From positions 1 to 61,706 of the forward strand of contig CANQQR010000004.1 in the NCBI GenBank assembly GCA_947626035.1: 61,706 nucleotides of DNA, in the 5' to 3' direction. The first letter of the stretch is position 1. Every line of letters begins with the position of its first letter. The notes below the pieces were generated by a model, which saw only the letters and a list, made by a program, of their open reading frames with translations, had not been told where the DNA came from and made no database searches. Positions 15,476-61,706 of the stretch are shown piece by piece. A program made the position numbers and the translations under genes. This DNA is from an uncultured Bacilli bacterium. GTDB lineage: Bacteria; Bacillota_I; Bacilli_A; RF39; UBA660.

Positions 15476-15504
15476 TATATCAAAATAATATGCACATTTT
15501 CAAC

Positions 15505-16137: not shown

Positions 16138-16154
16138 AATAATTCCTTTCCAAC

Positions 16155-19787: not shown

Positions 19788-20402
19788 CTATTGACCTTTT
19801 TGTTGTGAATCTGTGTATTTTGCTTCCCCAGATAACTTACATGTTACAGCACCAACAATACTACCGCCTTCTTGTGAAGTTTGAGGCTCATCTGTATCTT
19901 TAAAAGTTAGTTTATAAGTAATTGTATGTGTTGCTTCTGTTCCAGTTGTTTCTATAGTTCCGCTTGCTATTTTTAAAGTTTGAACGCCCTCTTCTCCGTC
20001 AGCAGAACTTATTTGTTTACCTTCGCCAGAAAAACCAGATTCAATTGTTGCATCAGAAGATTCAGCACTAAAATACAAATCAGTAAATTTAGTGTTTGTT
20101 GTTACTTCTAGACTACATTCATACTCAAATTTACCAGCACCACCTGCAGCAACTTTTATAGTCGCAGTTCCTGACTCAGACCAACCTGGAAATATATTTG
20201 TGCCAGTCAAAGCAGTTGCAGTATAACTAATTGCTGGTAATGTCGCAGCTCCAACATTAATACTACCTTTTTGAGTTTCTTGCATTGTTGTAGTGAAATA
20301 TGCAAATGTAGCACCGATTATAGCAACTAAAAGTGTAGCAATTCCAATTACTGATAAGAATATAGTTTGCCCTCTATTATCTCCTGTCTCCTCCTCCCAC
20401 AC
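19788..20402 (-). CDS. cassette C: in-frame GTG (20400-20402) but no SD; ACA at the homologous start position
   Basis: MWEEETGDNRGQTIFLSV... The purine tract upstream is 1 nt shorter than in D-G, which brings the GTG into frame. Confidence 0.6.
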   Translation of the reverse strand: MWEEETGDNRGQTIFLSVIGIATLLVAIIGATFAYFTTTMQETQKGSINVGAATLPAISYTATALTGTNIFPGWSESGTATIKVAAGGAGKFEYECSLEVTTNTKFTDLYFSAESSDATIESGFSGEGKQISSADGEEGVQTLKIASGTIETTGTEATHTITYKLTFKDTDEPQTSQEGGSIVGAVTCKLSGEAKYTDSQQKGQ

Positions 20403-20453
20403 CCATAAATAGTAAATTAACTATGTTCTTTCTTTCTCTTATCTTATTTCTCT
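20286..20453. repeat. inter-cassette junction repeat (B/C)
   Basis: See 17516-17678. Confidence 0.9.
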
Positions 20454-21125
20454 TTAGTCTCCACTTTGATTACTTTGTGTATAATGAGCCTCGCCTGACA
20501 ACTTGCATATTACTTGTGCTACAAGATTACCCTCTTGTTGGTCGTTTTGGTTATCATTATTATCTTCAAAATCAATTTTATATTTGAAGTTATGAGATAC
20601 ACTATCACCAGTTGTTGTAATAGTTCCGCTTGCTAATTTTATAGTTTGAACACCTTCTGCTCCATCAGCAGAACTTAATGTTTTAGCACTTTGAACACCA
20701 GTATCAATTTCAGCACCTGTTCCAGCTGTAACTGTTAACTTTAAGTCTTTAAATTTTTCATTAGTAGTTACTTCTAGATTACATTCATACTCGAATGTAC
20801 CTGCACCACCAGCAGCAACAGTTATAGTAGCTGTTTTGTCTTCACTTGTCCAACCAGGGTATATATTACTTGCAGTTATAGCCTCAGCAGTATAACTAAT
20901 TGCTGGTAATTTAGCAGAACCTACATTAATTTTACCTTGATTTTCTCCTGTCATTGTTGTAGTGAAATATGCAAATGTAGCACCGATTATAGCAACTAAA
21001 AGTGTAGCAATTCCAATTACTGATAAGAATATAGTTTGCCCTACCGCCGGAGGGTAGTAAGTAGTAAATAAAACATATAAACAACTTATCAACAAAGAAT
21101 TAATTAAAACTACATACACATCCAC
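20454..21125 (-). CDS. cassette B: conserved leader from GQTIF onward, replaced 5' end
   Basis: Upstream of GGGCAAACT the shared sequence is replaced by ..TACTACCCTCCGGCGGTA.., a GC-rich 16-mer. The only in-frame start is the distant GTG at 21125, so the true start is uncertain. Confidence 0.5.
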   Translation of the reverse strand: MDVYVVLINSLLISCLYVLFTTYYPPAVGQTIFLSVIGIATLLVAIIGATFAYFTTTMTGENQGKINVGSAKLPAISYTAEAITASNIYPGWTSEDKTATITVAAGGAGTFEYECNLEVTTNEKFKDLKLTVTAGTGAEIDTGVQSAKTLSSADGAEGVQTIKLASGTITTTGDSVSHNFKYKIDFEDNNDNQNDQQEGNLVAQVICKLSGEAHYTQSNQSGD

Positions 21126-21315
21126 AACCTAATAACAAAGTATATAAAATATAAAATAATATCAACAACATATACACAACTAAATTAATAAACAAGTAAC
21201 ATAATTTTTAAATCAAAAGAAATATAAAAAACTTCTAAAAAACATTAAATAACATAAATGATTTTTAGAAGTTAAAATGCCCATAAAAAAAAGACCATAA
21301 ATAATCTTTATTTAC

Positions 21316-21335
21316 AGTCTTAGTTAGATAAGACT
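21316..21335 (-). terminator. hairpin after cassette A (possible partial or bidirectional terminator)
   Basis: AGTCTTA-N6-TAAGACT, a perfect 7-bp stem. The T-run is immediate only on the plus strand. A second 11-bp inverted repeat sits at 21231-21272. Confidence 0.35.
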
Positions 21336-21406
21336 AACTTTTTTATAAATAGTAAATTAACTATGTTCTTTCTTTCTCTTATCTCGTTTTGCTTATTATT
21401 GTTGGT

Positions 21407-22006
21407 CTATTGACCTTTTTGTTGTGAATCTGTGTATTTTGCTTCCCCAGAAAGTTTGCAAGTTACTGTAGCTGCGATGTTTCCACCTTGTTGCTCGTTT
21501 TGCTCAATTTCAGTATCTTTGAAGTCTAGTTTGTAAGTAAATGTATGTGATGTAGCACTTCCTGTAGCTTCAATTGTTCCACTTGCTAATTTTATTTCTT
21601 GAACACCTTCTTCTCCGTCTTCTGAACTTATTGTCTTTGGACTTTGAACACCAGCATCAATAGTAGCACCTGTTCCAGCTGTAACAGTTAATTCTAAATC
21701 TTTAAACTTAGTATTAGATGTTACATTTAGAGTACATTCATAAGCAAATTTACCTTTACCACTGTCGTCAACAGATATAGTTGCTGTCTTTTCTCCACTA
21801 GACCATCCAGGGTATATATCACTTGCAGTTATCGAATCAGCAGAATATGTGATTTTTGGTAATGTTGCAGACCCAACACTGATATTACCTTGAGTTCCTG
21901 TCATTGTTGTAGTGAAATATGCAAATGTAGCACCGATTATAGCAACTAAAAGTGTAGCAATTCCAATTACTGATAAGAATATAGTTTGCCCTCTATTATC
22001 TCCCAT
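21407..22006 (-). CDS. cassette A: TasA/camelysin-like secreted protein, canonical expression copy
   Basis: AAAGGAGG-N9-ATG. MGDNRGQTIFLSVIGIATLLVAIIGATFAYFTTTM signal, 199 aa. Own promoter upstream. Confidence 0.85.
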   Translation of the reverse strand: MGDNRGQTIFLSVIGIATLLVAIIGATFAYFTTTMTGTQGNISVGSATLPKITYSADSITASDIYPGWSSGEKTATISVDDSGKGKFAYECTLNVTSNTKFKDLELTVTAGTGATIDAGVQSPKTISSEDGEEGVQEIKLASGTIEATGSATSHTFTYKLDFKDTEIEQNEQQGGNIAATVTCKLSGEAKYTDSQQKGQ

Positions 22007-22034
22007 AGTTCTTTACCTCCTTTACTATATACAA

Positions 22035-22063
22035 TGATATCAATTTTTATTTATAAAAGCAAG
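22035..22063 (-). promoter_or_regulatory. sigma-A-type promoter for cassette A
   Basis: Coding strand TTGCTT (22063-22058), a 17-nt spacer ending TGA, then TATCAT (22040-22035), i.e. an extended -10. Confidence 0.55.
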
Positions 22064-22114
22064 CAAAAAATGCAAAATATTGTAAAAATATTTCCCACCA
22101 CACATAATTAACCA

Positions 22115-22156
22115 TACAAATATAACAAAGAGTGACTAATTGTTAGCCACTCTTTA
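22115..22156 (-). terminator. rho-independent terminator of the giant repeat-protein gene
   Basis: AAAGAGTGGCTAA-CAA-TTAGTCACTCTTT (13 pairs, one G-U) starting 6 nt after the stop, followed by GTTATATTTG. Confidence 0.7.
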
Positions 22157-22161
22157 TCACA

Positions 22162-25059
22162 TTATTCATTAACTTTAACTTGTAATCTTGTATAAAATAC
22201 CTTACCTTTATCAGCACTTTGGTCTTCATTAGTATTTTTAAATTCAAAAGTCAATTTATAAGTATGAGTTTCCCCAGCTTTAATAGTTACATCCTTAAGC
22301 ATCTCTAACCCATTGTCAGATGGGTAAGGAACTCTACCCTCATTTAAATCTACAATAGTTTCGTCATTTCTAGTAATACCATAATAAAGTCTATTCTTAA
22401 AATTAAACGTATTAACTATATCTGTCCAAATAATACTATAAGTAACATCAGTATCTCCCTCATTCTTAATAGTAAAATTCTTACTACCTTTCCATCCAGG
22501 CGCAATACTTTGGTCTTTAAGTTCAGTATCATCTAAGAAAGTTAAATTAAATGTATCTCCTTGACCAGTACCAATAACAACATCCTTTAAATCACTAGGT
22601 GCATTTTCTCCAGTCTCTATAGGGTACTTATCAACCTTACCATCTCTATCTGTATCAATATTTCCGTCAGGTGTTCCATCTCCATCTAAATCAACATTCA
22701 AATCAGGTTTACCATCTCCATCAATATCAACATTAACATCTGGTAATCCATCATTATTAGTATCACAATTCAAATCACACTTACCATCATTATTAGTATC
22801 TTGATTAGTTAAATTCTTATCTGGTTTACCATCTCCATTAGTATCAACATTAACATCAGGTACACCATCTTTATTCATATCTAAATTAGTATCAGGTTTA
22901 CCATCCTTATCATTATCAACATTAGTATCAGCCTTACCATCTCCATTAACATCAATATTAACATCAGGTGTTCCATCACTATCAGTATCGCAATTCAAAT
23001 CACACTTTCCGTCTCCATCCTTATCAACATTCAAATCAGGCTTTCCGTCTCCATCAGTATCTAAATTACTATCAACCCTACCATCATTATTATTATCACA
23101 GTTTAAATCACACTTTCCATCTCCATCTGTATCTTGATTAGCAGGATTATCATCAGGTCTACCATCTCCATTAATATCTATATTAGTATCAGGCCATCCA
23201 TCCTTATTAGTATCACAGTTTAAATCACACTTTCCATCTCCATTAGTATCTTGGTCAGTTAAATTCTTATCTGCTTTACCATCTCCATCAGTATCAACAT
23301 TAACATCAGGCTTACCATCCTTATCTAAATCCAAATTAGTATCAGGATTTCCATCTCCATTAGTATCACAATCTAAATCACACACACCATTACCATCAAT
23401 ATCAACATTCAAATCAGGAATACCATCTCCATTAGTATCACAATTAACGTCGCATACACCATCCCCATTAGTATCTTGATTACTCTTATTACTATCAGGA
23501 TTTCCATCTCCATTATTATCTAAATTAGTATCTGGTACACCATCCTTATTAGAATCAATATTAGTATCAGGTTTACCATCTTTATTAGTATCACAATTAT
23601 AGTCACAAATTCCATCATGATTAGTATCAACATTAGTATCAGGTTTACCATCTCTATCTAAATCTAAATTAGTATCAGGAATACCATCCCCATTATTATC
23701 ACAATTTAAATCACATACACCATCTTTATTAGTATCTTGGTCAGTTAAATTCTTATCTGGTTTACCATCTTTATTAACATCACAGTTAAAATCACACTTA
23801 CCATCTCCTGTAACATCAATATCAGTATCAACATTACCATCTTTATTATTATCACAATTTAAATCACACTTACCATTACCAGTAATATCAACATTAGTAT
23901 CAGGCCATCCATCTCCATTATTATCGCAATTCAAATCGCACTTACCATCTCCATCAGTATCTTGATTTAACTTATTCTTATCTGGCTTACCATCTCCATC
24001 CTTATCAACATTAACATCAGGATTACCATCCTTATTAATATCTAAATTAGTATCAGGATTACCATCTTTATTAGTATCACAATTTAAATCACACTTACCA
24101 TTACCACTAACATCAACATTAGTATCAGGCCATCCATCTCCATTAGTATCACAGTTAACATCACACTTACCGTCTCCATCAGTATCTTGATTTAACTTAT
24201 TCTTATCTGGCTTTCCATCTCCATCCTTATCAACATTAACATCAGGCTTACCATCTTTATTAATATCTAAATTAGTATCAGGTTTACCATCTCTATTAGT
24301 ATCACAATTTAAATCGCACTTTCCATCTCCATCTTTATCTACATTCAAATCAGGATTAGTCTCTCTACTATAATCTTTATTAAAAGAACCCTCTCCATAA
24401 TTATCTCCATTAGATAAATTCTTATCTGCTTTACCATCTCCATCAGTATCGCAGTTAACATCACACTTACCGTCTCCATTATTATCTACATTCAAATTAG
24501 GCTTCCTATCTCCTGTAGTATCACAATTCAAATCACAAATACCATCATTATCTGTATCTAAATTCAAATCTGGTATACCATCTCCATTAAAATCTAAATT
24601 AGTATCAGGCTTACCATCCTTATTAGTATCACAGTTAACATCACATACACCATCTTCATCATAATCTTGATTAATCAAATTCTTATCTGGCTTTCCATCT
24701 CCATCAGTATCTATATTAAAGAATGGAACCATAGTATCTCTATACCCAAGATTAATATCAGGTATACCATCATCATTAGTATCACAGTTAACATCACAAA
24801 TACCGTCTCCATCAGTATCAACATTCAAATCAGGCCATCCATCTCCATCAGTATCAATATTAAGCTTCAAATGTGCCTTTTGAAAATAATTCAAAACAGA
24901 CCAAGTAGACGCTATTGTTGCAAGCATAAAAAGCAACAATGCAAAAATAATCAAAATAACTCTCTTATTTTTCTCAGCCTTACTCTTAGGCTCCTCAAAA
25001 TAAAGCCCATCCTCTTCAATAATCTTTTTCTCTTCATCATTATAAGGCTCTTGTCTCAT
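22162..25059 (-). CDS. giant secreted/anchored Cys-rich calcium-binding repeat protein (thrombospondin type-3-like repeats) with C-terminal cassette-type beta-sandwich domain
   Basis: Start taken at ATG 25059 (AAGGTGA SD). N-terminal TM/signal ..ATIASTWSVLNYF. Dozens of DxDxDGxxDxN and CDxNCD units. The C-terminal ~160 aa carry APGWKGSKNFTIKN and DQSADKGKVF islands. Confidence 0.8.
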   Translation of the reverse strand: MRQEPYNDEEKKIIEEDGLYFEEPKSKAEKNKRVILIIFALLLFMLATIASTWSVLNYFQKAHLKLNIDTDGDGWPDLNVDTDGDGICDVNCDTNDDGIPDINLGYRDTMVPFFNIDTDGDGKPDKNLINQDYDEDGVCDVNCDTNKDGKPDTNLDFNGDGIPDLNLDTDNDGICDLNCDTTGDRKPNLNVDNNGDGKCDVNCDTDGDGKADKNLSNGDNYGEGSFNKDYSRETNPDLNVDKDGDGKCDLNCDTNRDGKPDTNLDINKDGKPDVNVDKDGDGKPDKNKLNQDTDGDGKCDVNCDTNGDGWPDTNVDVSGNGKCDLNCDTNKDGNPDTNLDINKDGNPDVNVDKDGDGKPDKNKLNQDTDGDGKCDLNCDNNGDGWPDTNVDITGNGKCDLNCDNNKDGNVDTDIDVTGDGKCDFNCDVNKDGKPDKNLTDQDTNKDGVCDLNCDNNGDGIPDTNLDLDRDGKPDTNVDTNHDGICDYNCDTNKDGKPDTNIDSNKDGVPDTNLDNNGDGNPDSNKSNQDTNGDGVCDVNCDTNGDGIPDLNVDIDGNGVCDLDCDTNGDGNPDTNLDLDKDGKPDVNVDTDGDGKADKNLTDQDTNGDGKCDLNCDTNKDGWPDTNIDINGDGRPDDNPANQDTDGDGKCDLNCDNNNDGRVDSNLDTDGDGKPDLNVDKDGDGKCDLNCDTDSDGTPDVNIDVNGDGKADTNVDNDKDGKPDTNLDMNKDGVPDVNVDTNGDGKPDKNLTNQDTNNDGKCDLNCDTNNDGLPDVNVDIDGDGKPDLNVDLDGDGTPDGNIDTDRDGKVDKYPIETGENAPSDLKDVVIGTGQGDTFNLTFLDDTELKDQSIAPGWKGSKNFTIKNEGDTDVTYSIIWTDIVNTFNFKNRLYYGITRNDETIVDLNEGRVPYPSDNGLEMLKDVTIKAGETHTYKLTFEFKNTNEDQSADKGKVFYTRLQVKVNE

Positions 25060-25331
25060 ACTATTCACCTTCCTATTATCTAATATAAATAATAACACAA
25101 TTAAATAACTAAAGCAAACAAAATAAAACTAAGATTTACTATTTTTAACTCTTTAATGAAGTAATAGGTATAACATACACCCCATCATCCCTCATATAAA
25201 CAGCATTTGTCATCCCACAAATCACACATACAAATTCACTTTTTTCATTTCCATTACCACACTTTTTTAATAAGATAAGATTTACCAGACACTGTCTAAC
25301 ATTTTTTAACTCATAAAAAATGAAACAAAAC

Positions 25332-50380: not shown

Positions 50381-50440
50381 AATAACAAAAATAAGAGTAA
50401 TAAAAGTGACACCATAAACAAATGTCACTTTTTCATTTTA

Positions 50441-51820
50441 TTAAATAAATCCAGGAGCAAGTTCTTCAGTTACATCTTCAAAATCTGTGCTAATCTCTTT
50501 TGATTCAAGATTAAATAAAGTTTTTTCAAAGAAAAATTTAATATCACACTTTGATTTATCAGGAGCAACACTATACAAATTTTCATTCCTCTTGTACAAA
50601 CCTTTAACATAATCAAAATCAACTAAACATTTTATTTGTTCTTTTACTTCTTTCTTATCATCTTCATTAGTAAAACCAATTACTGTATAAAAATGAACTT
50701 TAGTATCATTAAAATTTGTACACTTACAATCGTATAAAGCTTTATTCCTATAATCAATTCTTTCTGTAAGAGTTGTTATATCATACTTCTTTGGAGTCTC
50801 ATCTTCTTTATAATCCAGAAAAGCTTTAATATCTTCAAGATGTGTCATAACGCCATTATTACCAAGAATAACAGAATCATCCACTTTAATTTCAACTAAA
50901 TAAATATCACTTACATTAAATATTTTTTCCTTCGTCATTTTATATTTATAAAATATGCAATCAATTCTTCCAGTTTTATAATCTTTCTCGTTTTTCTTAC
51001 CTATTATTGGATTTTTATTTATAATTCCATATTCTTGTTCAAAATGTACTACAACCTCATCATCTTCACGCGGAAATAAAGCTTTGCTTTCATTAGCTTT
51101 TAACATGAAATAATGTTGGTACTTCTTTTCTAATTTATCAGAAGATTTATAATTTGATATACCCATTTTAATATGTGAAATAAAATCAGAAAATTTAATA
51201 CCTTTATCAAAATCAATACTAATATCAAATTTATCATCTTTAGTTATAGTATCAAATCTACTTTTATATTTAAATAATTCTATATACTTACACTGTATTG
51301 TAACAATATCTCGAGGTTCACTAATAGGTTGATCAAACTTAATTATATACTTTGTTTCTTTATTTTCTTTAATCGAAAAACTACATCCTATATTATATCT
51401 TTCTTTAACAAATAATTCAAAATCATTTCTTACCTTTTCATATTTATCTTTATTAGTTGAATTTTCATTTAAACAATAAGAAATTCCATTAAATGAAAAA
51501 CTAGTAAATTCTAACAATCCATCCATTAAACTTATCTTACTTTCTTTATATTCTTCTAATTCTTCATTTTCTTTTTTCCTTACATCAGTTGTATTACATT
51601 TATAAACATTGACAGGAAACTCCAACTTAGCCTTTCCTCCATCATTTACTACATCAAATGCTTTAATCCCATTATAATAAGCAATATTGGATGCTTTATC
51701 TTCGTCCGTATCATTTTTATCTTTATCATTATTAGCTCTAACTCTTAAAATAAAACCATCTAACTCTTTATTATTATAAAAATTTTTTATAAATTCATCA
51801 AAATCAAAATTTGTTTTCAT
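50441..51820 (-). CDS. hypothetical protein with C-terminal PD-(D/E)xK nuclease-like motif
   Basis: 459 aa. ..HFEQEYG..GRIDCIFYKY..(20 aa)..IYLVEIKVDD (D287, E310, K312 in ORF numbering). AAGGAG SD. Separated by 14 nt from the upstream MBL gene. Confidence 0.6.
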   Translation of the reverse strand: MKTNFDFDEFIKNFYNNKELDGFILRVRANNDKDKNDTDEDKASNIAYYNGIKAFDVVNDGGKAKLEFPVNVYKCNTTDVRKKENEELEEYKESKISLMDGLLEFTSFSFNGISYCLNENSTNKDKYEKVRNDFELFVKERYNIGCSFSIKENKETKYIIKFDQPISEPRDIVTIQCKYIELFKYKSRFDTITKDDKFDISIDFDKGIKFSDFISHIKMGISNYKSSDKLEKKYQHYFMLKANESKALFPREDDEVVVHFEQEYGIINKNPIIGKKNEKDYKTGRIDCIFYKYKMTKEKIFNVSDIYLVEIKVDDSVILGNNGVMTHLEDIKAFLDYKEDETPKKYDITTLTERIDYRNKALYDCKCTNFNDTKVHFYTVIGFTNEDDKKEVKEQIKCLVDFDYVKGLYKRNENLYSVAPDKSKCDIKFFFEKTLFNLESKEISTDFEDVTEELAPGFI

Positions 51821-51834: not shown

Positions 51835-53070
51835 TTATACTTGAATTACTTCTTTTTCTTTAACTAAAACGACATTATCTAATACTTCTTTTAATTTTTC
51901 AGGTTCAGTTGTATGAATTGGTATAACTTTTTTTGCATGTAATCTATTAAGTAATTTTATTGTCTTTCTATCTGCATGACCTGACGTATGTAAATCAATT
52001 ATATCTTTAACACCATACTTATTAATTTCCTCTAAAAATTTTTTTGTCTCTGGTTCTTTCTTATACCCATCCCACATTGAATAAATAAGGCAAGCATTAT
52101 CAATGAAATTTTTATTATACAATTTTATAATAGATTCCAACATCGAAGTTTTAATCAGTAAACAATATTTCTTATCTTTATAAGATTTTTGTTTAGATCT
52201 TTCTTTAAATTTATAAACATACTTTTGTTTAAATCTTTGACTTTTATCTTTCCCATATTTACTAGTTATCCAAGTATAAACATTATCTCTATTAAATGGA
52301 TTAGGTATAGATTCATCCTTTAAACTCAATGTTAAATTCGAAGTAAAAATATCTTCTATAAATGTTTTTCCTGTCTCAGTTGCAACATTATAAAAAACTT
52401 TAAGTCTATCAATATTAGTTGACGACTGCAATATAAAGACTTGATTATACTTATTAAAAATTTCTTTAGCTCTTTCCATCAAGTGTTCCTCTGTTTCATT
52501 AACTACATCTTCTCTACTTAAGGAAGTGCCCTCAGTTACAATAATATCAACACTACCAATCTCTTTTAAAGTATTATCAAATTCATTACCTCTTAACCCA
52601 TTGCATCTAAAGTCTCCAGTATGAAGCATCCTTTTACCATCACACTCAATTAAAAGCATACAAGAATTATAAGCAGAATGATCAACAAAGTAAGGCGTAA
52701 CTACCATATCATTTATTACAATAGATTTATTAAGTTTCATATCATTAGTTTTAAACCTAATACCTTGATAAGTAAATACTCCCAATAATTTATAAACAAT
52801 TTTAGACATTGGCTCAACATAAACTGGAATATCGTCAAGAATATGATCAATTAAACCAATATGATCACTATGACTATGGGTAATAAATACTGCATCATAT
52901 TGCTTAATACCTGTAGTTAACCCAACAATATTAGGATTTTCTTTCTTTATTTGATTATCTCCTTCTAAATCAGAACCAAAATCAATAATTATTTTTGTCC
53001 CCTTACTACTTACGACTTCAGTAACACAACCTCCTATTTGTTTTGTTCCCTTTATAATCTGTACTTCCAC
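51835..53070 (-). CDS. beta-CASP-type metallo-beta-lactamase-fold nuclease
   Basis: 411 aa. FITHSHSDHIG (HxHxDH), VDHSAYNS, LHTGDFR, VTEGT, LHTSGHAD, VIPIHT. This is the MBL motif 1-4 and beta-CASP A/B/C pattern. Confidence 0.7.
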   Translation of the reverse strand: MEVQIIKGTKQIGGCVTEVVSSKGTKIIIDFGSDLEGDNQIKKENPNIVGLTTGIKQYDAVFITHSHSDHIGLIDHILDDIPVYVEPMSKIVYKLLGVFTYQGIRFKTNDMKLNKSIVINDMVVTPYFVDHSAYNSCMLLIECDGKRMLHTGDFRCNGLRGNEFDNTLKEIGSVDIIVTEGTSLSREDVVNETEEHLMERAKEIFNKYNQVFILQSSTNIDRLKVFYNVATETGKTFIEDIFTSNLTLSLKDESIPNPFNRDNVYTWITSKYGKDKSQRFKQKYVYKFKERSKQKSYKDKKYCLLIKTSMLESIIKLYNKNFIDNACLIYSMWDGYKKEPETKKFLEEINKYGVKDIIDLHTSGHADRKTIKLLNRLHAKKVIPIHTTEPEKLKEVLDNVVLVKEKEVIQV

Positions 53071-53351
53071 TTTTGTAATACCTCCATAATTTCTTTATTA
53101 AAACCTTATATTCTAAATATTCACAAACAATAAATATTAACTAAAACTTATTTAAAATATCAAACTCTATCAACATTATATCATACGCTTTTATAACAAC
53201 AAAGTTTAATTTATCATATTAAAAAGAACTTTCAACTACACAAATTTATACACCATTTATATTATCATTATTATATTTTGTTATTACTTCATAATATTTT
53301 TTTATAAAACTTTTTAATTTCAACATATCTTCTTCCTTTATACTTATTTCT

Positions 53352-53561
53352 CTATTTATAACACACAATTGCCAAATTAGTCATTATAATATAGTACATC
53401 CAAAATATTTGTTTTACTTCAAACTCTGATATATCAACATTCCAATAATCTATTAACAGTTGTTTATGTGTTTTTATATATACTTCATCAAAATTTCTCA
53501 CTTCTTTTAAATTTTTTAAAATCTTAACATGTTTAATATCAACAGTTAAAAAAACATTCAA
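53352..53561 (-). CDS. hypothetical small ORF (possibly a fragment of a decayed gene)
   Basis: 69-aa ORF with no motif. Adjacent short in-frame-like fragments at 53580-53713 and 53260-53340. Confidence 0.2.
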   Translation of the reverse strand: MNVFLTVDIKHVKILKNLKEVRNFDEVYIKTHKQLLIDYWNVDISEFEVKQIFWMYYIIMTNLAIVCYK

Positions 53562-53735
53562 AACCCCATTTCTTAACTTTTATTTAAAAAATAAATCCTT
53601 TTAATCTTTCTTTTCCATTATAAACTAAATACAAAATTATATCAGTATAATCTTCATTTTCAAAAGAAATTGTTGCTTTAAATAAATTATTTATCATTTT
53701 ATCTTTTAATTTCATTATTAAACATCCGTTAACTA

Positions 53736-55922
53736 TCATTGATATTTTTGCATTATTTCAATAAAAATCCTTGGAAATTTAGCCTTATACCAAGAAAATT
53801 TATACGCAATTAAAGTATATGAGACAACATGTGATTTTAATGGTAAATAGCCAATATTTTCTAATTTAAATACATCTTCAGAAGAAATTTTATTAAGCAA
53901 AAATTTTTTATAATTATTCCAATTTTCTAAATCATTTATCTTTTCTTTTCCAATAAAATTCATTATTTCATAAGCTTTATCATACTCAACATTATGTTTA
54001 AGCAAAAACAATAAAATATCTTCACGATAAACTATTATATCTTTAATACTTTCCTTATTTTTTAACAACTTATTAATTTTATTTGTTATACCACCACTAT
54101 GCAAAAGTCCAATTACTTTAACTAAATCAGCAAAATTCTGAGGTTTTATAATATTAATTATAGTTTTAGCATACACATCATCAAATTCAAATAAATATTT
54201 CGTATCTTTCTTATTTATTAAATCAAAAACAATTTGTTCATTTAATGGTATATCTTCTAATTTAACTTTAGTTAAATCTTCTAATTCCTTTAGTATTGTA
54301 GGTACTCTATGGCCTAATACATCAAACTTAATAATAATTGAAACAAGATCATGATAATCAAAATGTGTGCTTAAATAATTATAAATATTATTGCTATGAG
54401 GATAATTACAAGGTGTAAAATCATATACTTCCTTATTTTTAGATATTAAAAATAATCCACCTGGATGTTGTCCAATATTCTTAAACTTACCTTCTAATTT
54501 ATGAATTAAACTAACTTTTTCACGATTAGTTAAACCTCTTTGCATAATTTTTTCTTTAATACTAATAGGCCGCATAAGTCCTATAACTCCGGCTTTAATC
54601 GTATAATCATTGCCCCAAAAATCGATTAAATAATTTATTAAATCTTTTTGAATATAATCAGCAAAATTAACATCAATATCTGGAATTTTCTCAACATTTA
54701 ATCCTAAAAAATTTTCATAAGGAATATTAAATCCATCTTTTTTTAATTTACTATAACACTTCGGACATTTTTTATCAGGCATATCTATTCCATAATTATA
54801 ATTTAAAGCATCATTAAAATAAAAATTTTTACACTTAGAACAATAATAATGAGGAGGAAGTGGATTTATGCTAGTAATTCCCAATAAATATGCAACAAAA
54901 GAAGATGCAACACCACCTCTAACAAATGACGGATACCCCATATCATAAGACTTATCTACTAACTTTTTATATATTAAAAATAAAGACTCAGTATTAGTAT
55001 TAATTATTCCATATTTATTAGAAGCATCGTTACCATATAACTCTTCATTTAATCTCTGGGTAATAATGCTTGGAATATTTTTATCGCACATCTCATTCAA
55101 TCTTTTATTTATAATATACAATATTTTATTTTTGCTATCTTTAATTTGAGGTAAATAACATTTATCATCAATTATTTTTATATCTTTTATTAAACTTGCA
55201 AGTTTATTAGTATTCGTAATAACCAGTTCATATGCTAACTCTTCATCTAAAAAACTAAAATCATCTAACATTTCCTTAGTTGTTTTTAAATAATTAACTA
55301 GTTTATCATCCTTAAATAATTTCTTATAATCATCCCTTTCTTCTTTCTTTAAATAACACACATTAAGAGAAGCTATAACAATCTTATGAATATCTTTAGC
55401 AATATCTATTATTCTTTTTAAATAATTCTTATCTAAAGCTGAATTAACTTCAATAAAATCCCACCATACTAAATCATCTTTAACTTGATAATCTTCCAAA
55501 TCATCATATATTTCTTCCATGTAAGATAAATTTAATCCATATAATAACCCATCACTTAAAAACACTAATTCATCTTTAGTAATAACCTCTTTTCCATATT
55601 TATCTAAATTATCTGTTTTAATCTTAGTAATTATTTTATATAAATTTTTTAATCCTTCTTGAGCTCTTACTAATATAGTAATAGGAATAACTGTTTCAAA
55701 CACAAGCATATTTACTACTGCACCATAAATAATCTTAAACTCAGTAATATTATTAGTTTTAAGATATTTCTCTATTTTAGGAAAATTATACACATTATTA
55801 AAATCAGTAATAGCTACTTTATTTAATCCTATACTTTTTGCATAATTGATTAATTCTTTAAAATCAACAATACTATTCTTTGTCATTTTAGTAAAAACTT
55901 TAAATTCTACTCTTTCTAACAT
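53736..55922 (-). CDS. PolC-like DNA polymerase III alpha core lacking the exonuclease, N-terminal and C-terminal domains, with a degenerate PHP domain
   Basis: GYPSFVRGGVASSFVAYLLGITSINPLPPHYYCSKC..CPKC..KKDGFNIPYENFLG..KIPDIDVNF, GQHPGGLFL..VYDFTPCNYP, HFDYHDLVSIIIKFDVLGH. PHP ligand positions read VEFKVFTKMT and ITDFNNV. Confidence 0.75.
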   Translation of the reverse strand: MLERVEFKVFTKMTKNSIVDFKELINYAKSIGLNKVAITDFNNVYNFPKIEKYLKTNNITEFKIIYGAVVNMLVFETVIPITILVRAQEGLKNLYKIITKIKTDNLDKYGKEVITKDELVFLSDGLLYGLNLSYMEEIYDDLEDYQVKDDLVWWDFIEVNSALDKNYLKRIIDIAKDIHKIVIASLNVCYLKKEERDDYKKLFKDDKLVNYLKTTKEMLDDFSFLDEELAYELVITNTNKLASLIKDIKIIDDKCYLPQIKDSKNKILYIINKRLNEMCDKNIPSIITQRLNEELYGNDASNKYGIINTNTESLFLIYKKLVDKSYDMGYPSFVRGGVASSFVAYLLGITSINPLPPHYYCSKCKNFYFNDALNYNYGIDMPDKKCPKCYSKLKKDGFNIPYENFLGLNVEKIPDIDVNFADYIQKDLINYLIDFWGNDYTIKAGVIGLMRPISIKEKIMQRGLTNREKVSLIHKLEGKFKNIGQHPGGLFLISKNKEVYDFTPCNYPHSNNIYNYLSTHFDYHDLVSIIIKFDVLGHRVPTILKELEDLTKVKLEDIPLNEQIVFDLINKKDTKYLFEFDDVYAKTIINIIKPQNFADLVKVIGLLHSGGITNKINKLLKNKESIKDIIVYREDILLFLLKHNVEYDKAYEIMNFIGKEKINDLENWNNYKKFLLNKISSEDVFKLENIGYLPLKSHVVSYTLIAYKFSWYKAKFPRIFIEIMQKYQ

Positions 55923-56051
55923 TTTTGTTCAACTCCCTCTAAAATTTTAAAATCTTTCTTTCAAAATTAACTTTTCTATTTTCAAATTGCATCTCTTCTA
56001 AAACAAAGCCATCTAATTTTTAAAGTTATCACTAAGGATAACAGAAAAATG

Positions 56052-56831
56052 TCATAAATTAGTATCGGTTACCTTTAATATTCTGTCATCCTCAGTAAAT
56101 TCAATAGACGTATCTTGTCCAAAAAGATTAATAGTAGCTTTAATATTGTTATAATCTAAATCAATTTCGTCAATTACAGCTTGAAGCCCTTGAAATGGTC
56201 CAGTTAAAATTTTAACTTTATCACACTCCTTAACATCTTTAAATGAAGTCCATTCACTTACTAGCTCCTCTTGACTATTTTTTCGATGCGTTTTTACATT
56301 AAGCCAAACACCTAGTTTAACATGATTAGATTTCACTAAAGGAACATCATAACCCTTAAAATACTTATTAATACAATACATTTCATATTCGGTAGATAAT
56401 CCACGATAAACAGGAGCATCATACCCATAATAAGTAGATGCACAAGATATATACTTTTGAACATCAATAGAATCTTGGTGTTCCTTTAATAACTTACATT
56501 GATCAATAATATTATCTTTAGAATCTAAAAGTTTCTCTATATAATCCATATTATAATCAGCTGGAGTAATAATACTAAGAGAATCAGGAATAATTAAAGG
56601 TTCTTCCTTATCTTCCACTTCTAAACCATAATAATACTTAACAATACAATATAAAATATACTTAGCATCTAAATCATAATCACGAAATGTATTTGCTAAA
56701 ATAAGTCTATCAATATATTGTCTTACCCCTTTCCTATATTTAACCTTGCTTAATTCCTTTAGTTGTTCAACAATATTGTCCTTGCTATCAACTATTTTTT
56801 TGACATACTTATTCGAGCGAGCGCAGTTCAT
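56052..56831 (-). CDS. KOW-domain (NusG-like C-terminus) protein with internally duplicated N-terminal region
   Basis: C-terminus DKVKILTGPFQGLQAVIDEIDLDYNNIKATINLFGQDTSIEF equals the NusG KOW pattern. Start at ATG 56831 behind AAAGGAGG. Confidence 0.6.
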   Translation of the reverse strand: MNCARSNKYVKKIVDSKDNIVEQLKELSKVKYRKGVRQYIDRLILANTFRDYDLDAKYILYCIVKYYYGLEVEDKEEPLIIPDSLSIITPADYNMDYIEKLLDSKDNIIDQCKLLKEHQDSIDVQKYISCASTYYGYDAPVYRGLSTEYEMYCINKYFKGYDVPLVKSNHVKLGVWLNVKTHRKNSQEELVSEWTSFKDVKECDKVKILTGPFQGLQAVIDEIDLDYNNIKATINLFGQDTSIEFTEDDRILKVTDTNL

Positions 56832-56954
56832 TAAAGTTTTTCCTCCTTTCAATATAACAAGTATACACCACTTTTTTCAAATCCTTTTAAACGACATAAA
56901 AAAACACATTACTTTCCCAGTTTAAAAGAAAATAATGTGGTTTTTATACTTGTA

Positions 56955-57971
56955 TTAATGTATAATATACCATTCATTTTTACTAAAATCATAACCAATA
57001 TTTCGATATATTTTATTACAATCTATCATATATCTTTCAACTTGTCTTATTGAAACATTAAATTTATTAGCTAAAACACTAGATTTTATAGCTTTTTTAC
57101 CCTTCAAAAATTTATTTATGCTAGAAAGAATTTTAATTTTAGATGACGTAAAATTTATCTTTTCAGTATCTAAAATATAATCATAATATAATTCAGTTAT
57201 ATCATAATCATCAAGAATTTCATTTATAAAATAAATATTAGTATATTTTATGTGACTTTGTCTAATCTTTTCCTCATCATCAGTAATAATATAAACTAAA
57301 TTAAAATGATTAAATAACTTGCGGTATTTTTTATCAATATCTATACAATCTTTAACTTCTAAAAATTTATCATAAATAATTAACAAAAATCCTTGTTTCC
57401 TTTGAAGAGCATCAATATTTTTGACTTTTTTAATATAAGGAAAATGAAAAAAATTATTATCTTCAACAATATCTCTTTTATCAGTAAGAAATCCATTATA
57501 ATCCCCACATATATAAACATTTCTTCCTACATGTTCTAAACCAATACTTTTTTTATAAAATTCTACTTTAACAAAAGAATATTCACCACTATGTAATTTT
57601 TCTAATAATTCATTTTGCAATTTAAGAGCTTGATCATAAGATACATTTTCTCTTTCACATAATATTCTCAATATTTTAGGATTTACATAAATAAATATTA
57701 TTAACTCGCATGGAACAAATTTATTACTAAAAAGTGGGTCACCTTTTTTTACTTCAATTAAATTTTCAACAGTCTTAACATCATTTTGATTCATTTTAAC
57801 ATAGCCATACTTAGAAACAAATAAATCATCTAACACTTTATAATATAATTCACCCATTTTTAACTGATATTTTAAAATTTTAAAATCCATTCCAATAGTC
57901 CCTAATATCAACACACTTTTATCCGTATTTTTCATTAATATTTTTTTAATTTCCTTATATTCTTTATTCAT
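56955..57971 (-). CDS. hypothetical protein with C-terminal HTH (putative regulator)
   Basis: 338 aa from ATG 57971 (AGGTG SD). C-terminal SSVLANKFNVSIRQVERYMIDCNKI. Confidence 0.5.
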   Translation of the reverse strand: MNKEYKEIKKILMKNTDKSVLILGTIGMDFKILKYQLKMGELYYKVLDDLFVSKYGYVKMNQNDVKTVENLIEVKKGDPLFSNKFVPCELIIFIYVNPKILRILCERENVSYDQALKLQNELLEKLHSGEYSFVKVEFYKKSIGLEHVGRNVYICGDYNGFLTDKRDIVEDNNFFHFPYIKKVKNIDALQRKQGFLLIIYDKFLEVKDCIDIDKKYRKLFNHFNLVYIITDDEEKIRQSHIKYTNIYFINEILDDYDITELYYDYILDTEKINFTSSKIKILSSINKFLKGKKAIKSSVLANKFNVSIRQVERYMIDCNKIYRNIGYDFSKNEWYIIH

Positions 57972-58160
57972 ATCAGCACCTATTCCTTTCACTTCACACA
58001 AGGCGTATAGTTTTTCAATCTTTTAATTAATAAATAACATATTAAGTCCTCTAAATTAAAAGATGTCAACCGCTTATAACATTGTGACATCCTTTATTTA
58101 ACGTATTTATTAGCACTTTTAAATTTTCTATTAAATTAAATCGCTTAAAATTCCTTATTA

Positions 58161-58208
58161 ATGCATTTTTTCCACAACAGTTCTTGTATTTCTTCCCACT
58201 TCCACATG
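58161..58208. repeat. 48-bp direct repeat copy 1 (reverse strand encodes a SEC-C motif CGSGKKYKNCCGKNA)
   Basis: 44 of 48 nt identical to 59825-59872 by manual alignment. Confidence 0.85.
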
Positions 58209-58397
58209 TCGTGCATATTCCAATATTTATAGTATTTATGGTATTTATTATTATTGTTGCTATAATTTTTTTTCATTTGCAAACATTTAGCAAACTTTGT
58301 TTGCATCCGTTTACTATCACAATGTACTACTTTGTTAATTGTTTAGAAATATCTCTTTTCCCAACATATACTTATTATAACTTATTAAAAACTCCCT

Positions 58398-59333
58398 CTA
58401 CAATAATTCCAAATATTTCTTTAACATTTCTATCTCTAATCCATTTATCAATTTAACAAAATCAGTATAATCTTTCGTTGTATGTGCTTTATCTAAAGCT
58501 TCATAATATTGTAATCTATTTTCTTTTTTTATTATTACAGGATTAAAGCCATGTTTCATCAAATCTAAATTCATAATTAATCTTGATGTTCTCCCATTTC
58601 CATCAACAAAAGGATGAATTTTAACAAGTTCACCATGCAATAATGTAGCTCGAATTATTGGATGATATTTATTCCAAGTTTTATAATTTAAAATTAATTT
58701 TTCCATTAACTCAGGAACTTTTACAAAGTCTGGTGGAATATGAGTTGCTCCTTTTATAGTTACATTTTCACTTCTATATCTTCCAGCATTTTCATCATCA
58801 ATTTCTTTTAATATAAGAGCGTGTATATTTTTAATATTCCACTCAGTAATTGGGTCATCATCCTTTACTAAATCATTTAAAAACAAAATTGCGTGTTCGT
58901 GATTTATAGCTTCTAAGTGTTCCTTTATTGATTTTCCTCCAACAGTAATTCCTTCTAAAACTACTTGAGTTTCTTTTAAAGTCAAAGTATTTCCTTCTAT
59001 ACCATTACTATTATAAGTCCATTCCAAATTAATTTTTTCTTGTAGAGTTCTAAGTGTATCTTTTGGTATAGGTCTTTTATTATCAAGTTCTTTTTTTAAA
59101 TTGTCTACTTCATCAAAAAAATTATCTGGCAAATTAATAATAAAATCATTGTGATCTGGTTTTATAATCCTTTTATCAACTGGTTTTAGTGCATCAATTG
59201 GGATATTCCAACTATTTCCATTTTTGACTGCACCTTCTATTCTTCCTTCTTTTAATAATTTTCTTATTCTTCTTTCGCTAATATTCCATTTTAGAACAGC
59301 TTCTTTTGTAGTTATAAATTCCAAAGATATCAC
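58398..59333 (-). CDS. Fic-family protein with N-terminal excisionase/MerR-like HTH
   Basis: HPFVDGNGRTSR Fic motif. N-terminal ITTKEAVLKWNISERRIRKLLKEGRI. The likely real start is the TTG at 59324 behind GAGGTGA. Confidence 0.85.
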   Translation of the reverse strand: MISLEFITTKEAVLKWNISERRIRKLLKEGRIEGAVKNGNSWNIPIDALKPVDKRIIKPDHNDFIINLPDNFFDEVDNLKKELDNKRPIPKDTLRTLQEKINLEWTYNSNGIEGNTLTLKETQVVLEGITVGGKSIKEHLEAINHEHAILFLNDLVKDDDPITEWNIKNIHALILKEIDDENAGRYRSENVTIKGATHIPPDFVKVPELMEKLILNYKTWNKYHPIIRATLLHGELVKIHPFVDGNGRTSRLIMNLDLMKHGFNPVIIKKENRLQYYEALDKAHTTKDYTDFVKLINGLEIEMLKKYLELL

Positions 59334-59641: not shown

Positions 59642-59824
59642 TTTAACCATCTCCTTTCATATTAGTAATTAGTACTTGCTAAAACAAAAAGGAATGTTAA
59701 CATTCTATCTATGTTAACACTCCCTTATTTATAAGTGTTTTAGCTATTTTTTCAACTTATGCAAACAAAATCAAATTTCGCTATCAATATAATTTTTCAT
59801 AAAATTAATAAAGACCCTTTATTT

Positions 59825-59872
59825 ATGCATTTTTTCCACAACAATTTTTGTATTTCTTACCACTCCCACATG
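59825..59872. repeat. 48-bp direct repeat copy 2 (SEC-C motif, ends in TAA at 59823-59825)
   Basis: See 58161-58208. Only a 21-codon ATG ORF (59823-59888) remains. Confidence 0.85.
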
Positions 59873-60160
59873 AACTTGTTACTCCCATATTATCAGTATT
59901 ATTTATATTTATAATATTATTGATATTTCAATGTTTTTAGGACTAGGTAACATTTATATTATCAGTATTTATTGTATTATTTTTATTATAAATATTTATC
60001 TACTGTGGACAAATCGTGGACAATGTCCACATCCGTTCACTGCAGCAATTATATTACATATAATATAAAAATCAAAATGTGTGGATTCTTTCTCCCGTAC
60101 ATTTGACATTTATATTATATCATTTAAAGAAAAGATATTCAATAAGCCTCAAAAAATTTA

Positions 60161-60248
60161 CAGGATAAAATCATGAAAAAATAAAAGAAGAACATTTAAA
60201 ACTATATAGAATATGGTTTTTAGATGTTTTTTTCTTTAAAAATTTACT
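60161..60248. repeat. IS left terminal inverted repeat
   Basis: caggataaaatcatgaaaaaataaaag.. is the reverse complement of 61542-61629, with 87 of 88 positions matching. Confidence 0.9.
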
Positions 60249-60284
60249 ATATTGATTTAAAATTGATGTAGGGTGTAATAGAAA

Positions 60285-61541
60285 ATGAATAAATATAATC
60301 GATTAAATATAACAAAAGAACAAATGAGATATTTAAAAAAGAAACTAAAGATAACGAAAATGGAAGACATAGAGACAACTGTCCTAAAAGATTTGAAAGA
60401 GACATTTAAGGAATTAAAAGATCGAAGACAAAAATCAAAAACTCATTATAAAATATGGGATATTGTATGTTATGTGATTTTTGCCCAAATGTCCGGTGCA
60501 GAAGATTGGGAAGATATAGAAGAATTTATCAATTATCATTATGATTTTTTTAGAAAGTTCTTATTGATGACAGGAGGAGTTCCGAATTATCAAACGATAG
60601 AAAGAGTAATGTCTATCATTGATAGTCATGAACTTGAAAATATGTTAGTTGAATTTATCAAAAAAATCACGTTTAATGAAAAAACAGAAACAGAAATTTT
60701 AAATATAGATGGAAGAGTAGATTGTGGAAGTAGTAGAAAAGAAACAAACTATCATGGAAAAACATCACCATTAAATGTACTAAATGTTTACTCTAATAAT
60801 TATGGTATGTGTTTAGCAAGTGAGATGATAGAAGATAAAACAAATGAAATAACAACTATACCATCAATATTAGAGCGTTTAAATATAAAAGATACAGTCA
60901 TAACATGGGATGCATTAAATACACAAAAGAAAAATGTAGAAATAGTGAAAAGCAAAAAAGGAAATTACGTTGTGCCAGTTAAGAAAAATCATCCAAACTT
61001 TAATGCTGATTTAGAGTTATATTTCAATGAAAAAACACAAGAAGAAATCATAGCAGGAAGAAGTGATAGTGCGTATTTAAAAGAAATGGAAAAAAGCCAT
61101 TCTTGTTATATAACCTATGAATATTTCCAAACAACTGATGTAAAGTGGTACAGTGGACATAAAGAATGGAAAGGGTTAAATAGCTTTGGTATGGTAAAGA
61201 AAACAATTGAGAGAAACAAAGAAACAATTGTTGAAAAAAGATTTTATATATCAAGTTTGTTTATAGATATAGAGTTATTTTCAAAATCAATAAGAAATCA
61301 TTGGAGTATAGAAAATAAATTACATTGGCATTTAGATTTTACTTTTAGAGAAGATAAGAATACTACACAGAATAAGAAAGCATTGATGAATTTGCAGCTT
61401 ATTAATAAATTTTGTCTAGGAATATTTAGTAGAATAAAGTCGTTTTATAAAAATAAAAGTTTACGTCGAATGAAAAAAATTATGGGAATGGATTTTGAAG
61501 GAATCTTAATAAAAAACATATGTTATTTATTACTATCTTAA
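60285..61541 (+). CDS. ISAs1-family transposase (DDE)
   Basis: 418 aa. The N-terminal FKELKDRRQKSKTHYKIWDIVCYVIFAQMSGAEDWEDIEEF matches the DDE_Tnp_1_assoc signature. C-terminal HWSIENKLHWHLDFTFRED. Confidence 0.8.
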   Translation: MNKYNRLNITKEQMRYLKKKLKITKMEDIETTVLKDLKETFKELKDRRQKSKTHYKIWDIVCYVIFAQMSGAEDWEDIEEFINYHYDFFRKFLLMTGGVPNYQTIERVMSIIDSHELENMLVEFIKKITFNEKTETEILNIDGRVDCGSSRKETNYHGKTSPLNVLNVYSNNYGMCLASEMIEDKTNEITTIPSILERLNIKDTVITWDALNTQKKNVEIVKSKKGNYVVPVKKNHPNFNADLELYFNEKTQEEIIAGRSDSAYLKEMEKSHSCYITYEYFQTTDVKWYSGHKEWKGLNSFGMVKKTIERNKETIVEKRFYISSLFIDIELFSKSIRNHWSIENKLHWHLDFTFREDKNTTQNKKALMNLQLINKFCLGIFSRIKSFYKNKSLRRMKKIMGMDFEGILIKNICYLLLS

Positions 61542-61629
61542 AGTAAATTTTTAAAGAAAAAAACATCTAAAAACCATATTCTATATATTTTTAAATGTTC
61601 TTCTTTTATTTTTTCATGATTTTATCCTG
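61542..61629. repeat. IS right terminal inverted repeat
   Basis: See 60161-60248. Confidence 0.9.
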
Positions 61630-61706
61630 AAAAATTTATTCTTTAATTTCATATTGAATTACTTTATTTATTATTTCTGATTTTATTATATCATCAAATA
61701 CGTCTG

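Follow-up and report, generated by a model that had tools for sequence, protein, structure and literature searches.

Introduction

C-family DNA polymerases are regarded either as replicases (PolC, DnaE1 and DnaE3) or as translesion enzymes (DnaE2). Here we describe a gene for a truncated PolC-like protein of 728 amino acids, at positions 53736-55922 of the reverse strand of contig CANQQR010000004.1 from an uncultured Bacilli bacterium (assembly GCA_947626035.1); the stretch analysed runs from position 1 to 61,706 of this contig and is called the window below. Nearly all C-family polymerases carry a (HhH)2 domain and a clamp-binding motif, and a highly conserved PHP metal site has been reported for the PolC group; the survey behind both statements demanded an intact active site before a sequence was annotated as a polymerase (PMC3919608). 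A survey of C-family diversity removed strongly diverged or truncated sequences ahead of tree building (PMC12926913). In our search of the literature, neither a truncated PolC paralogue nor the operon in which the gene of the window lies was described, and this operon may be a new system.

The gene in the window encodes a selectively maintained PolC paralogue with the polymerase core and a PHP domain that has lost all of its metal ligands. We tentatively favour the reading that the product derives from a polymerase but serves a nuclease system as its DNA-end-binding or scaffold subunit. This system would probably be related to conflict or defence, and catalysis by the subunit appears dispensable.

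Results

A minimal PolC-derived core

The 728-residue protein consists of a PHP domain without metal ligands, followed by the palm, thumb and Cys4 zinc module and then by the fingers. Pfam places the PHP domain at residues 12-127, DNA_pol3_alpha at 270-452 and DNA_pol3_finger at 541-666, and residues 81-720 align with positions 617-1297 of the 1445 in the NCBIfam PolC model NF001688 (E 3.6e-144). Residues 3-720 align without a break with residues 115-883 of the 1041-residue chain of G. kaustophilus PolC in 3f2b (E 2.9e-95), a crystal construct that itself lacks the N-terminal domain and the exonuclease. An AlphaFold2 model of the protein (predicted local distance difference test, pLDDT, 82) gave PolC 3f2c as its top PDB match in Foldseek (E 3.4e-48, TM 0.65), and DnaE structures matched the model less well (E about 1e-26). 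A preliminary description of this DNA, made from the letters alone, had proposed profile and structure alignments against PolC and DnaE; in these, PolC ranked first in sequence as well as in fold.

The PolC-specific Cys4 zinc module (C361, C364, C386 and C389) is present, as are the polymerase aspartates D415 and D417 in PDIDVNF and D534 in KFDVLGH, together with the GQHPGG and YDFTP motifs. The list of open reading frames (ORFs) and the alignments bear out the preliminary description on these features and on the 728-residue ORF itself. It had also pointed to replaced PHP ligands. Reading the ligand positions from an alignment of the protein with 77 long PolCs, we found that none of the nine positions of the signature of an active PHP domain, HHDHEH[C/H]DH, is kept; K8, F10, N16, F41, V69, a gap, S133, N187 and C189 stand in their place, so that all nine are substituted or deleted.

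Whole domains of PolC are missing as well. For the DnaQ-type exonuclease there was no RNase_T (PF00929) match, and the alignment is gapless across the exonuclease-insertion site of 3f2b. None of PF14480, PF11490 and PF01336 matched as an N-terminal domain or OB fold, and the protein begins at the first PHP strand (RVEF, residues 4-7). At the C-terminus, PF14579/HHH_6 was not matched and the chain ends at residue 728, right after the last fingers helix, which amounts to a loss of about 140-160 residues comprising the (HhH)2 and the clamp-binding part. The preliminary description had listed these N-terminal, OB, exonuclease, HhH and clamp-binding parts as absent, and the Pfam searches and the 3f2b alignment agree. 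It had listed the thumb among them in error. The thumb of PolC is an insertion that splits the palm (PMC12592400), and judged from the alignment it is present in the window protein, inside the contiguously aligned region.

We considered whether the shortened C-terminus could be an artefact of the genetic code and rejected this, as the stop is TGA followed by TAA and translation under code 4, with TGA as Trp, would lengthen the protein by a single residue. TGA also serves as a stop elsewhere in the window. It is rare in that role, ending 4 of the 49 long ORFs against 28 for TAA and 17 for TAG, and two of the four are the PolC-like gene and the neighbouring operon gene c3. A tblastn search of the window with eight long PolCs (1,121-1,265 amino acids, two being partial records) matched only 53763-55928, and no fragment of the PolC N-terminus, the exonuclease or the C-terminal ~140 residues was found anywhere in the 61.7 kb. 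The ~660 bp downstream of the gene (53071-53735) hold only short broken ORFs, as the preliminary description had observed. It had suggested that its own reading would fall if these were a decayed PolC C-terminus. A frameshifted PolC C-terminus was rejected here, since the broken ORFs belong to c5, an unrelated operon gene described below.

The PolC-like gene is the sole C-family polymerase gene within the window, a point in favour of its being the replicative PolC of the host, in split or reduced form, in a lineage with a small genome. We consider this very improbable. The protein has no exonuclease, active PHP domain, OB fold or clamp-binding region, and it scores far below the PolC equivalog cut-offs (482.1 bits against 873 for NF001688 and 448.4 against 1043 for TIGR01405). 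Moreover, homologues in sister species lack the catalytic residues, and a related lineage (locus L100) has a normal PolC of 1672 amino acids beside its operon core.

Distribution, selection and catalytic residues

A search of 5.8 billion proteins returned about 20 clusters of 630-750 amino acids at 40-78% identity with the architecture of the window protein. A scan of GTDB species genomes found family members at 18 loci (L005-L022), 17 of which are titled 'uncultured Bacilli bacterium, isolate Lapin-...', that is, rabbit-gut metagenome-assembled genomes (MAGs), and one of which (L018) is titled uncultured Muribaculaceae. The window and these 18 loci form the species-level family of 19 members, with identities of 39-78%, to which the counts below refer. 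All 19 end at the same point, after the helix KAHxxSY..AWYK..P..F, and all 19 have lost the HxH and DH ligands of the PHP domain. The preliminary description had proposed a search for similarly truncated homologues; these 18 loci hold such homologues, with the same end point and the same operon context, and IMG/VR, INPHARED and PLSDB contained no member of the family.

The family is under purifying selection. Pairwise ratios of nonsynonymous to synonymous substitution (dN/dS) are 0.19-0.27 in the clade nearest the window, in which the catalytic triad is intact, and 0.37-0.45 in the most divergent clade, which lacks the triad; for the window and L005 the ratio is 0.21, in line with other pairs. 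Three further metagenome contigs, which come from at least two samples, encode an identical protein. The end point common to 19 members, the dN/dS of 0.19-0.45 and the absence of other PolC pieces from the window argue that the protein is a maintained PolC paralogue and not a simple product of decay. One of the alternatives in the preliminary description, a minimal PolC-derived protein, is upheld by the same end point and ratios.

Thirteen of the 19 members, the window among them, have an intact DxD dyad. The other six carry altered versions (L014 NID, L017 NIN, L018 SID, L020 VIN, L021 EIN and L022 QII), and the third catalytic aspartate has become N in four (L017, L018, L021 and L022). The four zinc cysteines are invariant across the family and the RGxxxSS motif is also conserved, S340 and S341 being nearly invariant (L021 has A at 340). 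A subgroup (P0004-P0012) has a deletion of ~45 residues in the fingers. From this pattern of substitutions, polymerase catalysis appears dispensable across the family, and since related copies have lost catalytic residues, the PolC-like protein is probably not a replicase.

These residues also bear on a rival reading, in which the protein is an active accessory polymerase without clamp or proofreading that fills gaps or extends nuclease-made 3' ends, and the operon is a module for recombination, repair or mutagenesis. Its functional counterpart would then be the ImuA-ImuB-DnaE2 cassette or an integrated element's replication-recombination module. D415, D417, D534, GQHPGG, RGxxxSS and the Cys4 module are intact in the window and in the family (13 of 19 members), which favours this reading. 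Against it, the aspartates are lost in 6 of the 19 and also in the more distant PolC-like proteins of L092, L095, L103 and P0064, with the ORFs still maintained, and the window protein has no (HhH)2 or clamp-binding motif. We regard an active polymerase as possible but doubtful, and return to it below where other loci supply evidence.

The operon around the gene

The preliminary description called the gene an orphan. It is instead a fixed member of a conserved operon of 6-8 genes, for which ORF clustering over the 19 loci gave the order c1-c3-c4-PolC-like-(c5)-(c4')-MBL-PD-(D/E)XK, MBL standing for metallo-beta-lactamase. The products have about 345 amino acids for c1, 250 for c3, 200 for c4, 225 for c5, 244 for c4' and 420 for the MBL, c5 and c4' being optional; the last protein has 460-557 amino acids across loci and is fused to the MBL in L007 and L019. 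All features of the window operon given below lie, like the PolC-like gene, on the reverse strand.

The best-conserved gene of the operon encodes a beta-CASP MBL nuclease of 411 amino acids (51835-53070). Its catalytic motifs are all intact, and the invariant residues include HSHxDH, H131, D153, HTSGH and H386. The last gene (50441-51820) encodes a 459-residue protein with a PD-(D/E)XK motif (GRIDCIF ... YLVEIKV), in which D287, E310 and K312 are invariant; one homologue gives a weak PDDEXK_9 match. A terminator-like hairpin found by consensus scan (50402-50432) lies at the operon end.

At the other end of the operon, c1 (56955-58001) encodes 348 amino acids, probably 338 from the conserved M11, with a C-terminal winged helix-turn-helix (wHTH). 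It lies upstream of the PolC-like gene in 17 of the 19 loci. A set of 1.84 billion proteins contained 119 representatives of it, and either half, N or C, also occurs as a protein on its own. No Pfam family matched c1, and profile searches against the PDB found nothing for c1 or for the 459-residue protein. In an AlphaFold2 model of c1 (pLDDT 88.6) two alpha/beta domains precede the wHTH, and only the C-terminal ~65 residues matched known folds (BrxR/CapW wHTH, root-mean-square deviation 2.1). We tried to derive a function for c1 from its fold and gave this up: although the model is confident, it yielded no more than a generic wHTH and a weak P-loop-kinase-like match.

A second terminator-like hairpin, seen by consensus scan only, lies between c1 and c3 (56905-56939). 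The product of c3 (56052-56852, 266 amino acids) has two N-terminal repeats of ~90 residues and a C-terminal NusG-type KOW domain, matched by Pfam at 2.3e-4 and by NCBIfam nusG at 3.1e-8, and by the family profile against the PDB NusG KOW at 3.6e-9. The gene was found in 16 of the 19 loci.

The gene c4 is deleted in the window. What is left of it at 56004-56045 is 12 codons, reading SVILSDNFKN and then a stop, that correspond to c4 residues 9-22 at 79-86% identity (tblastn). Most relatives have an intact c4 at this position; L010 lacks the upstream c4, and L020 has no recognisable c4. Sequence profiles suggest that c4 is a DnaB_C/RecA-fold protein, an assignment that is marginal from the window family alone and firm through the homologue in L100 (DnaB_C 7e-16); members of the c4 family lack the Walker A motif. 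Downstream of the PolC-like gene, 53249-53715 is a c5 pseudogene that occupies three frames, contains an in-frame stop and has lost ~60 codons. It matches the intact c5 of seven relatives (L005-L010 and L019) with E down to 1e-31 (tblastn), and the product, of ~225 amino acids, is weakly DUF4160-like. The window operon has no c4'.

With c4 deleted and c5 reduced to a pseudogene, the system in the window is probably impaired. The same losses raise the possibility that the gene is a non-functional relic in the window strain, with its ORF intact only through recent inactivation: just 12 codons of c4 are left, c5 has a stop, frameshifts and the ~60-codon deletion, and, ~2 kb upstream of c1, there is an insertion sequence (IS) bounded by terminal repeats of 99 nt. 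We think this unlikely. The other five operon ORFs (c1, c3, PolC-like, MBL and the 459-residue protein) are all intact within a region of 24% GC, where random ORFs break quickly, and the dN/dS between the window and L005 is the same as for other pairs. In addition, relatives may lack c5 and the second c4, L010 and L020 show that even the upstream c4 can be missing, and the identical protein occurs on contigs of at least two other samples. 'Decaying', the term of the preliminary description, fits the surrounding operon, with c4 deleted and c5 frameshifted; it does not fit the PolC-like gene itself, which is under selection. The GC content is 23-24% across 50-58 kb, compared with about 30% over much of the remaining window.

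The operon content speaks both for and against an active accessory polymerase. The RecA/DnaB_C-like partner c4 is encoded alongside, which favours it, but the operon has no gene for a ligase, an ImuB-like protein or a single-stranded DNA-binding protein.

Distant operon versions

The MBL is more widespread than the PolC-like protein, with >100 clusters at 46-85% identity. In distant operons it retains 52-69% identity, compared with about 26% for the PolC-like protein and about 35-41% for c1. One such version, at L092/L093 (locus coordinates 9555-18112, MBL 54% identity), has the order NUDIX, c1, a 457-residue protein similar to c4, c4, Macro, PolC-like, MBL and a 413-residue nuclease-like protein. 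The PolC-like protein of L092 (690 amino acids, 26% identity) lacks the zinc module and is catalytically dead, with PDININF and SFGILEH at the active site. In these loci NUDIX adjoins c1 and Macro adjoins the dead PolC-like gene, which hints at a link to ADP-ribose or nucleotide metabolism.

A second version, at L095/L096 and L103/L104, has the C-terminal half of c1, c3, a fusion of the PolC-like protein to a c4 domain, c4, a protein in an exonuclease slot, the MBL and a protein of 480-518 amino acids. The fused PolC-like protein has 891 amino acids and is dead (PRITIKT). The exonuclease-slot protein has 346 amino acids and an RNase_T match (2.2e-11) in L095/L096, and its 296-residue homologue in L103 has no Pfam match. 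The DnaQ-like exonuclease of L095 is consistent with an active polymerase, as are the resolvase and tyrosine integrase near the L095 operon. L097 argues the other way: its operon, located between murF/ddl and rdgB, has the C-terminal half of c1, a KOW protein, c4, the MBL and a 229-residue protein, and no polymerase gene.

In L100-L102 (MAGs GCA_910587745.1 and GCA_949536635.1) the operon core lies between full-length dnaE and polC genes, all co-directional, at locus coordinates 2247-15061. The order is a YhcG-like gene, DnaE (968 amino acids), a 2-bp gap, the C-terminal half of c1, a 265-residue protein and c4, followed by a 160-residue protein, the MBL, a 224-residue protein, a 44-bp gap, PolC, spoIIGA and sigE. 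This PolC is full-length, with exonuclease and HhH in its 1672 amino acids. The location of the core between a genuine dnaE and a genuine polC is a further point in favour of an active polymerase. The 265-residue protein is weakly similar to residues 1503-1605 of the adjacent PolC. We considered a descent of the PolC-like protein from a duplicated adjacent polC of an L100-type ancestor and rejected it, as region-matched identities show no special affinity; these identities pointed to no particular donor of the window family. Another arrangement, in L023, combines a 226-residue protein, an MBL (31-35% identity) and a PolC-like protein of 917 amino acids.

The wHTH, KOW, DnaB_C-like and MBL proteins recur across these variants and so make up the constant operon core, which the PD-(D/E)XK nuclease usually accompanies. 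A C-family polymerase or a derivative of one, often catalytically dead, is present in five of the six variants. We also looked for a general tie of the operon to canonical polC loci and rejected it, since only 1 of 67 PolC-containing loci (L023) has an MBL homologue nearby. With L023 set apart, 0 of the 67 carry the module, suggesting that the association of operon and polymerase is specific to these lineages.

Other truncated PolC-like proteins

Truncated PolC-like proteins also occur outside the family. P0064 (707 amino acids) is dead (PKISLNF), lacks the zinc module and has the same end point as the window protein, a point shared by P0100. P0069 is a truncated PolC-like protein of 893 amino acids, and P0111 and P0114 are fusions of DnaB_C to the PolC core; the existence of such fusions (P0111) again favours an active polymerase. 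P0064, P0069, P0036, P0111 and the PolC-like protein of L092 each resemble the window family less than they do canonical exonuclease-less clostridial PolC; the exception is the PolC-like protein of L095, which is nearer to the window family (128 vs 119 bits). As most of these proteins are nearer to canonical PolC, truncation of PolC seems, on sequence similarity, to have occurred repeatedly and independently.

At L088 and L090/L091, truncated PolC-like proteins (707 and 893 amino acids) are encoded 3-4 small genes downstream of WYL-domain regulators, and at L090 the gene sits among restriction-modification and methylase genes. Published work links WYL-class regulators to responses to DNA damage and to defence (PMC10693628). 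That truncated PolC-like genes adjoin such regulators also counts towards an active accessory polymerase.

Genomic context and mobility

IMG/VR contained no family member of the PolC-like protein or of the MBL, and INPHARED and PLSDB gave matches only to PolC-type polymerase genes at roughly 27-32% identity. With no family member in these three collections, we rejected an origin from phage or plasmid. The 'element-borne replicase' of the preliminary description is not supported: viral and plasmid relatives do not go beyond the ~27-32% PolC-type matches, and a third of the family is without the catalytic aspartates. The absence of the family from viral and plasmid collections also weighs against an active accessory polymerase.

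The genomic site of the operon varies. In several MAGs it lies between secA and prfB. In the window its neighbours are a Fic/HTH gene on one side and bPH and acyltransferase genes on the other, and the flanks there are not syntenic with those of the other loci. A search for island boundaries at the window operon found no convincing flanking direct repeats and no tRNA gene. Alleles are mosaic: the window and L005 share 78% identity in the PolC-like protein and 39% in c3, and L009 and L008 share 86% in the PolC-like protein and 51% in c1. In PADLOC-DB 2.0 the PolC-like protein, c1, c3 and the 459-residue protein were unmatched, and the MBL gave a weak match only, to PDC-M48B, so we rejected its assignment to a catalogued anti-phage defence system. 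Defence-type neighbours are few (Fic/SoFic, AbiD and KilA-N), and a resolvase and a tyrosine integrase occur in the loci of relatives.

Directly upstream of the window operon lies the gene for a Fic/DOC protein of 311 amino acids with an N-terminal HTH_17 (58398-59333, reverse strand), which matches the PADLOC models SoFic (1.3e-31) and PDC-S04 (1.9e-36). A 130-nt direct repeat of 72% identity has one copy just upstream of c1 (58122-58251) and the other at 59786-59915, which is 453-582 nt upstream of where the Fic gene starts; the repeat may mark either a junction that was duplicated or a regulatory element that is shared. The IS mentioned above is complete (60153-61637) and lies beyond the Fic gene. 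Its 99-nt terminal inverted repeats (60153-60251 and 61539-61637) are 96% complementary and enclose a DDE transposase of 418 amino acids (60285-61541; DDE_Tnp_1_assoc and DDE_Tnp_1). Farther away on the reverse strand, the gene for a 978-residue protein that weakly matches Ntox24 (22162-25098) precedes a tandem array of nine paralogous ORFs (15547-22006) that code for 163-230 amino acids each. The nine are mutually 40-80% identical and some resemble the C-terminal ~120 residues of the large protein. In its layout the locus 15547-25098 resembles those of polymorphic toxins, the array being made up of spare cassettes for C-termini or immunity.

Discussion

We infer a sensor or scaffold role for the PolC-like protein. 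In the mechanism that we propose, the PolC-derived core would recognise a primer-template junction or a 3' end, or would mimic or dock with the replisome, and would thereby position or license the beta-CASP and PD-(D/E)XK nucleases on target DNA. Nucleotide addition would not be the conserved activity, and the window copy, in which the triad is kept, may still carry out short synthesis without clamp or proofreading. That genes come and go, that alleles are mosaic and that the genomic position shifts all point to a role in conflict with phages or other mobile elements, which we favour over housekeeping repair. The variation of the accessories (Macro, NUDIX and the DnaQ-like exonuclease) and the fast divergence of the non-effector subunits would also fit a function in conflict or defence.

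Several observations weigh against a catalysis-independent subunit of a defence system. The window protein and 12 relatives keep the three catalytic aspartates, GQHPGG and the zinc module, which makes active polymerisation in the window clade quite possible, and the dead copies could then be secondary decay. The dnaE-operon-polC array in L100 fits an accessory role in replication or repair at least as well as it fits defence. Since c4, which is in most operon variants examined (not L020), is deleted in the window, the system there may not work. As to defence itself, the MBL's only PADLOC match, PDC-M48B, is weak (E 4.4e-4), the one clear PADLOC match is that of Fic, a neighbour outside the operon, and the 91 flanking proteins scanned are mostly housekeeping.

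A wider proposal, doubtful but worth stating, concerns the operon as a whole. It could be an undescribed Firmicutes system with a functional coupling to C-family replicases, in which, for most lineages, a captured copy of PolC serves as a pseudo-polymerase sensor or adaptor that directs two nucleases. The pseudo-polymerase would recognise replication-type DNA ends, or be a decoy for PolC-targeting factors, and would direct the two nucleases against invading or aberrant DNA. If true, this would be the first replicative-polymerase-derived pseudoenzyme in bacterial immunity or replisome surveillance; a system with either function would add replicase-derived sensors as a new class. If instead the PolC-like protein is active, it would rank as roughly the smallest PolC-type polymerase in nature and could help to delimit the minimal catalytic unit. 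Apart from either outcome, the PolC core appears to have been cut repeatedly to a PHP scaffold with Pol3, without proofreading or clamp binding and often without catalysis, and yet selection keeps it in a nuclease operon. The dnaE-operon-polC array in one lineage provides a concrete, testable link to the replisome.

The closest described protein is PolC itself (3F2B/3F2C; E. faecium 9QPC; NF001688 and TIGR01405). The window protein shares with it the PHP fold, the palm with inserted thumb, the Cys4 module and the fingers, as well as the DxD and third D, GQHPGG and RGxxxSS, and PolC is its best match by sequence and fold. It differs in lacking the N-terminal domain, the OB fold, the DnaQ exonuclease, the (HhH)2, the clamp-binding region and the nine PHP ligands, in its identity of ~30% with scores about half the equivalog cut-offs, and in being encoded in a nuclease operon and not at a polC locus. 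The exonuclease-less PolCs of Clostridia and Negativicutes (Timinskas et al. 2014, PMC3919608) likewise have a PHP domain without the exonuclease insertion. These proteins (1140-1270 amino acids) are among the best full-coverage matches outside the family, at ~30-32% identity overall and 35-45% in the palm-fingers region. By Pfam, however, they keep the OB fold and (HhH)2, whereas the window family has neither of these, nor the PHP metal site.

The other truncated PolC-like proteins (P0064, P0069, P0111/P0114, L092, L095, L103 and L023) resemble the window protein in having a PolC core without exonuclease and an association with DnaB_C-like proteins, and in that several active sites are dead (P0064, L092 and L095). 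P0064 and P0069 differ in having WYL-regulator neighbours and no MBL protein. By analogy only, the ImuA-ImuB-DnaE2 mutasome is also comparable: its C-family polymerase is non-essential, does not proofread, has an inactive PHP domain and is encoded with a RecA-fold protein without a normal ATPase site. The window protein is, in contrast, derived from PolC and not from DnaE, its operon has no ImuB or Y-family homologue and has nuclease, KOW and wHTH partners instead, and its catalytic residues are dispensable across the family. Finally, bacterial PolX with an inactivated polymerase site (PMC12926913) offers an earlier example of a polymerase homologue being retained during the decay of its polymerase catalytic residues. 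In PolX the PHP exonuclease is conserved, whereas in the PolC-like family the PHP domain is wholly dead and no enzymatic site is conserved family-wide.

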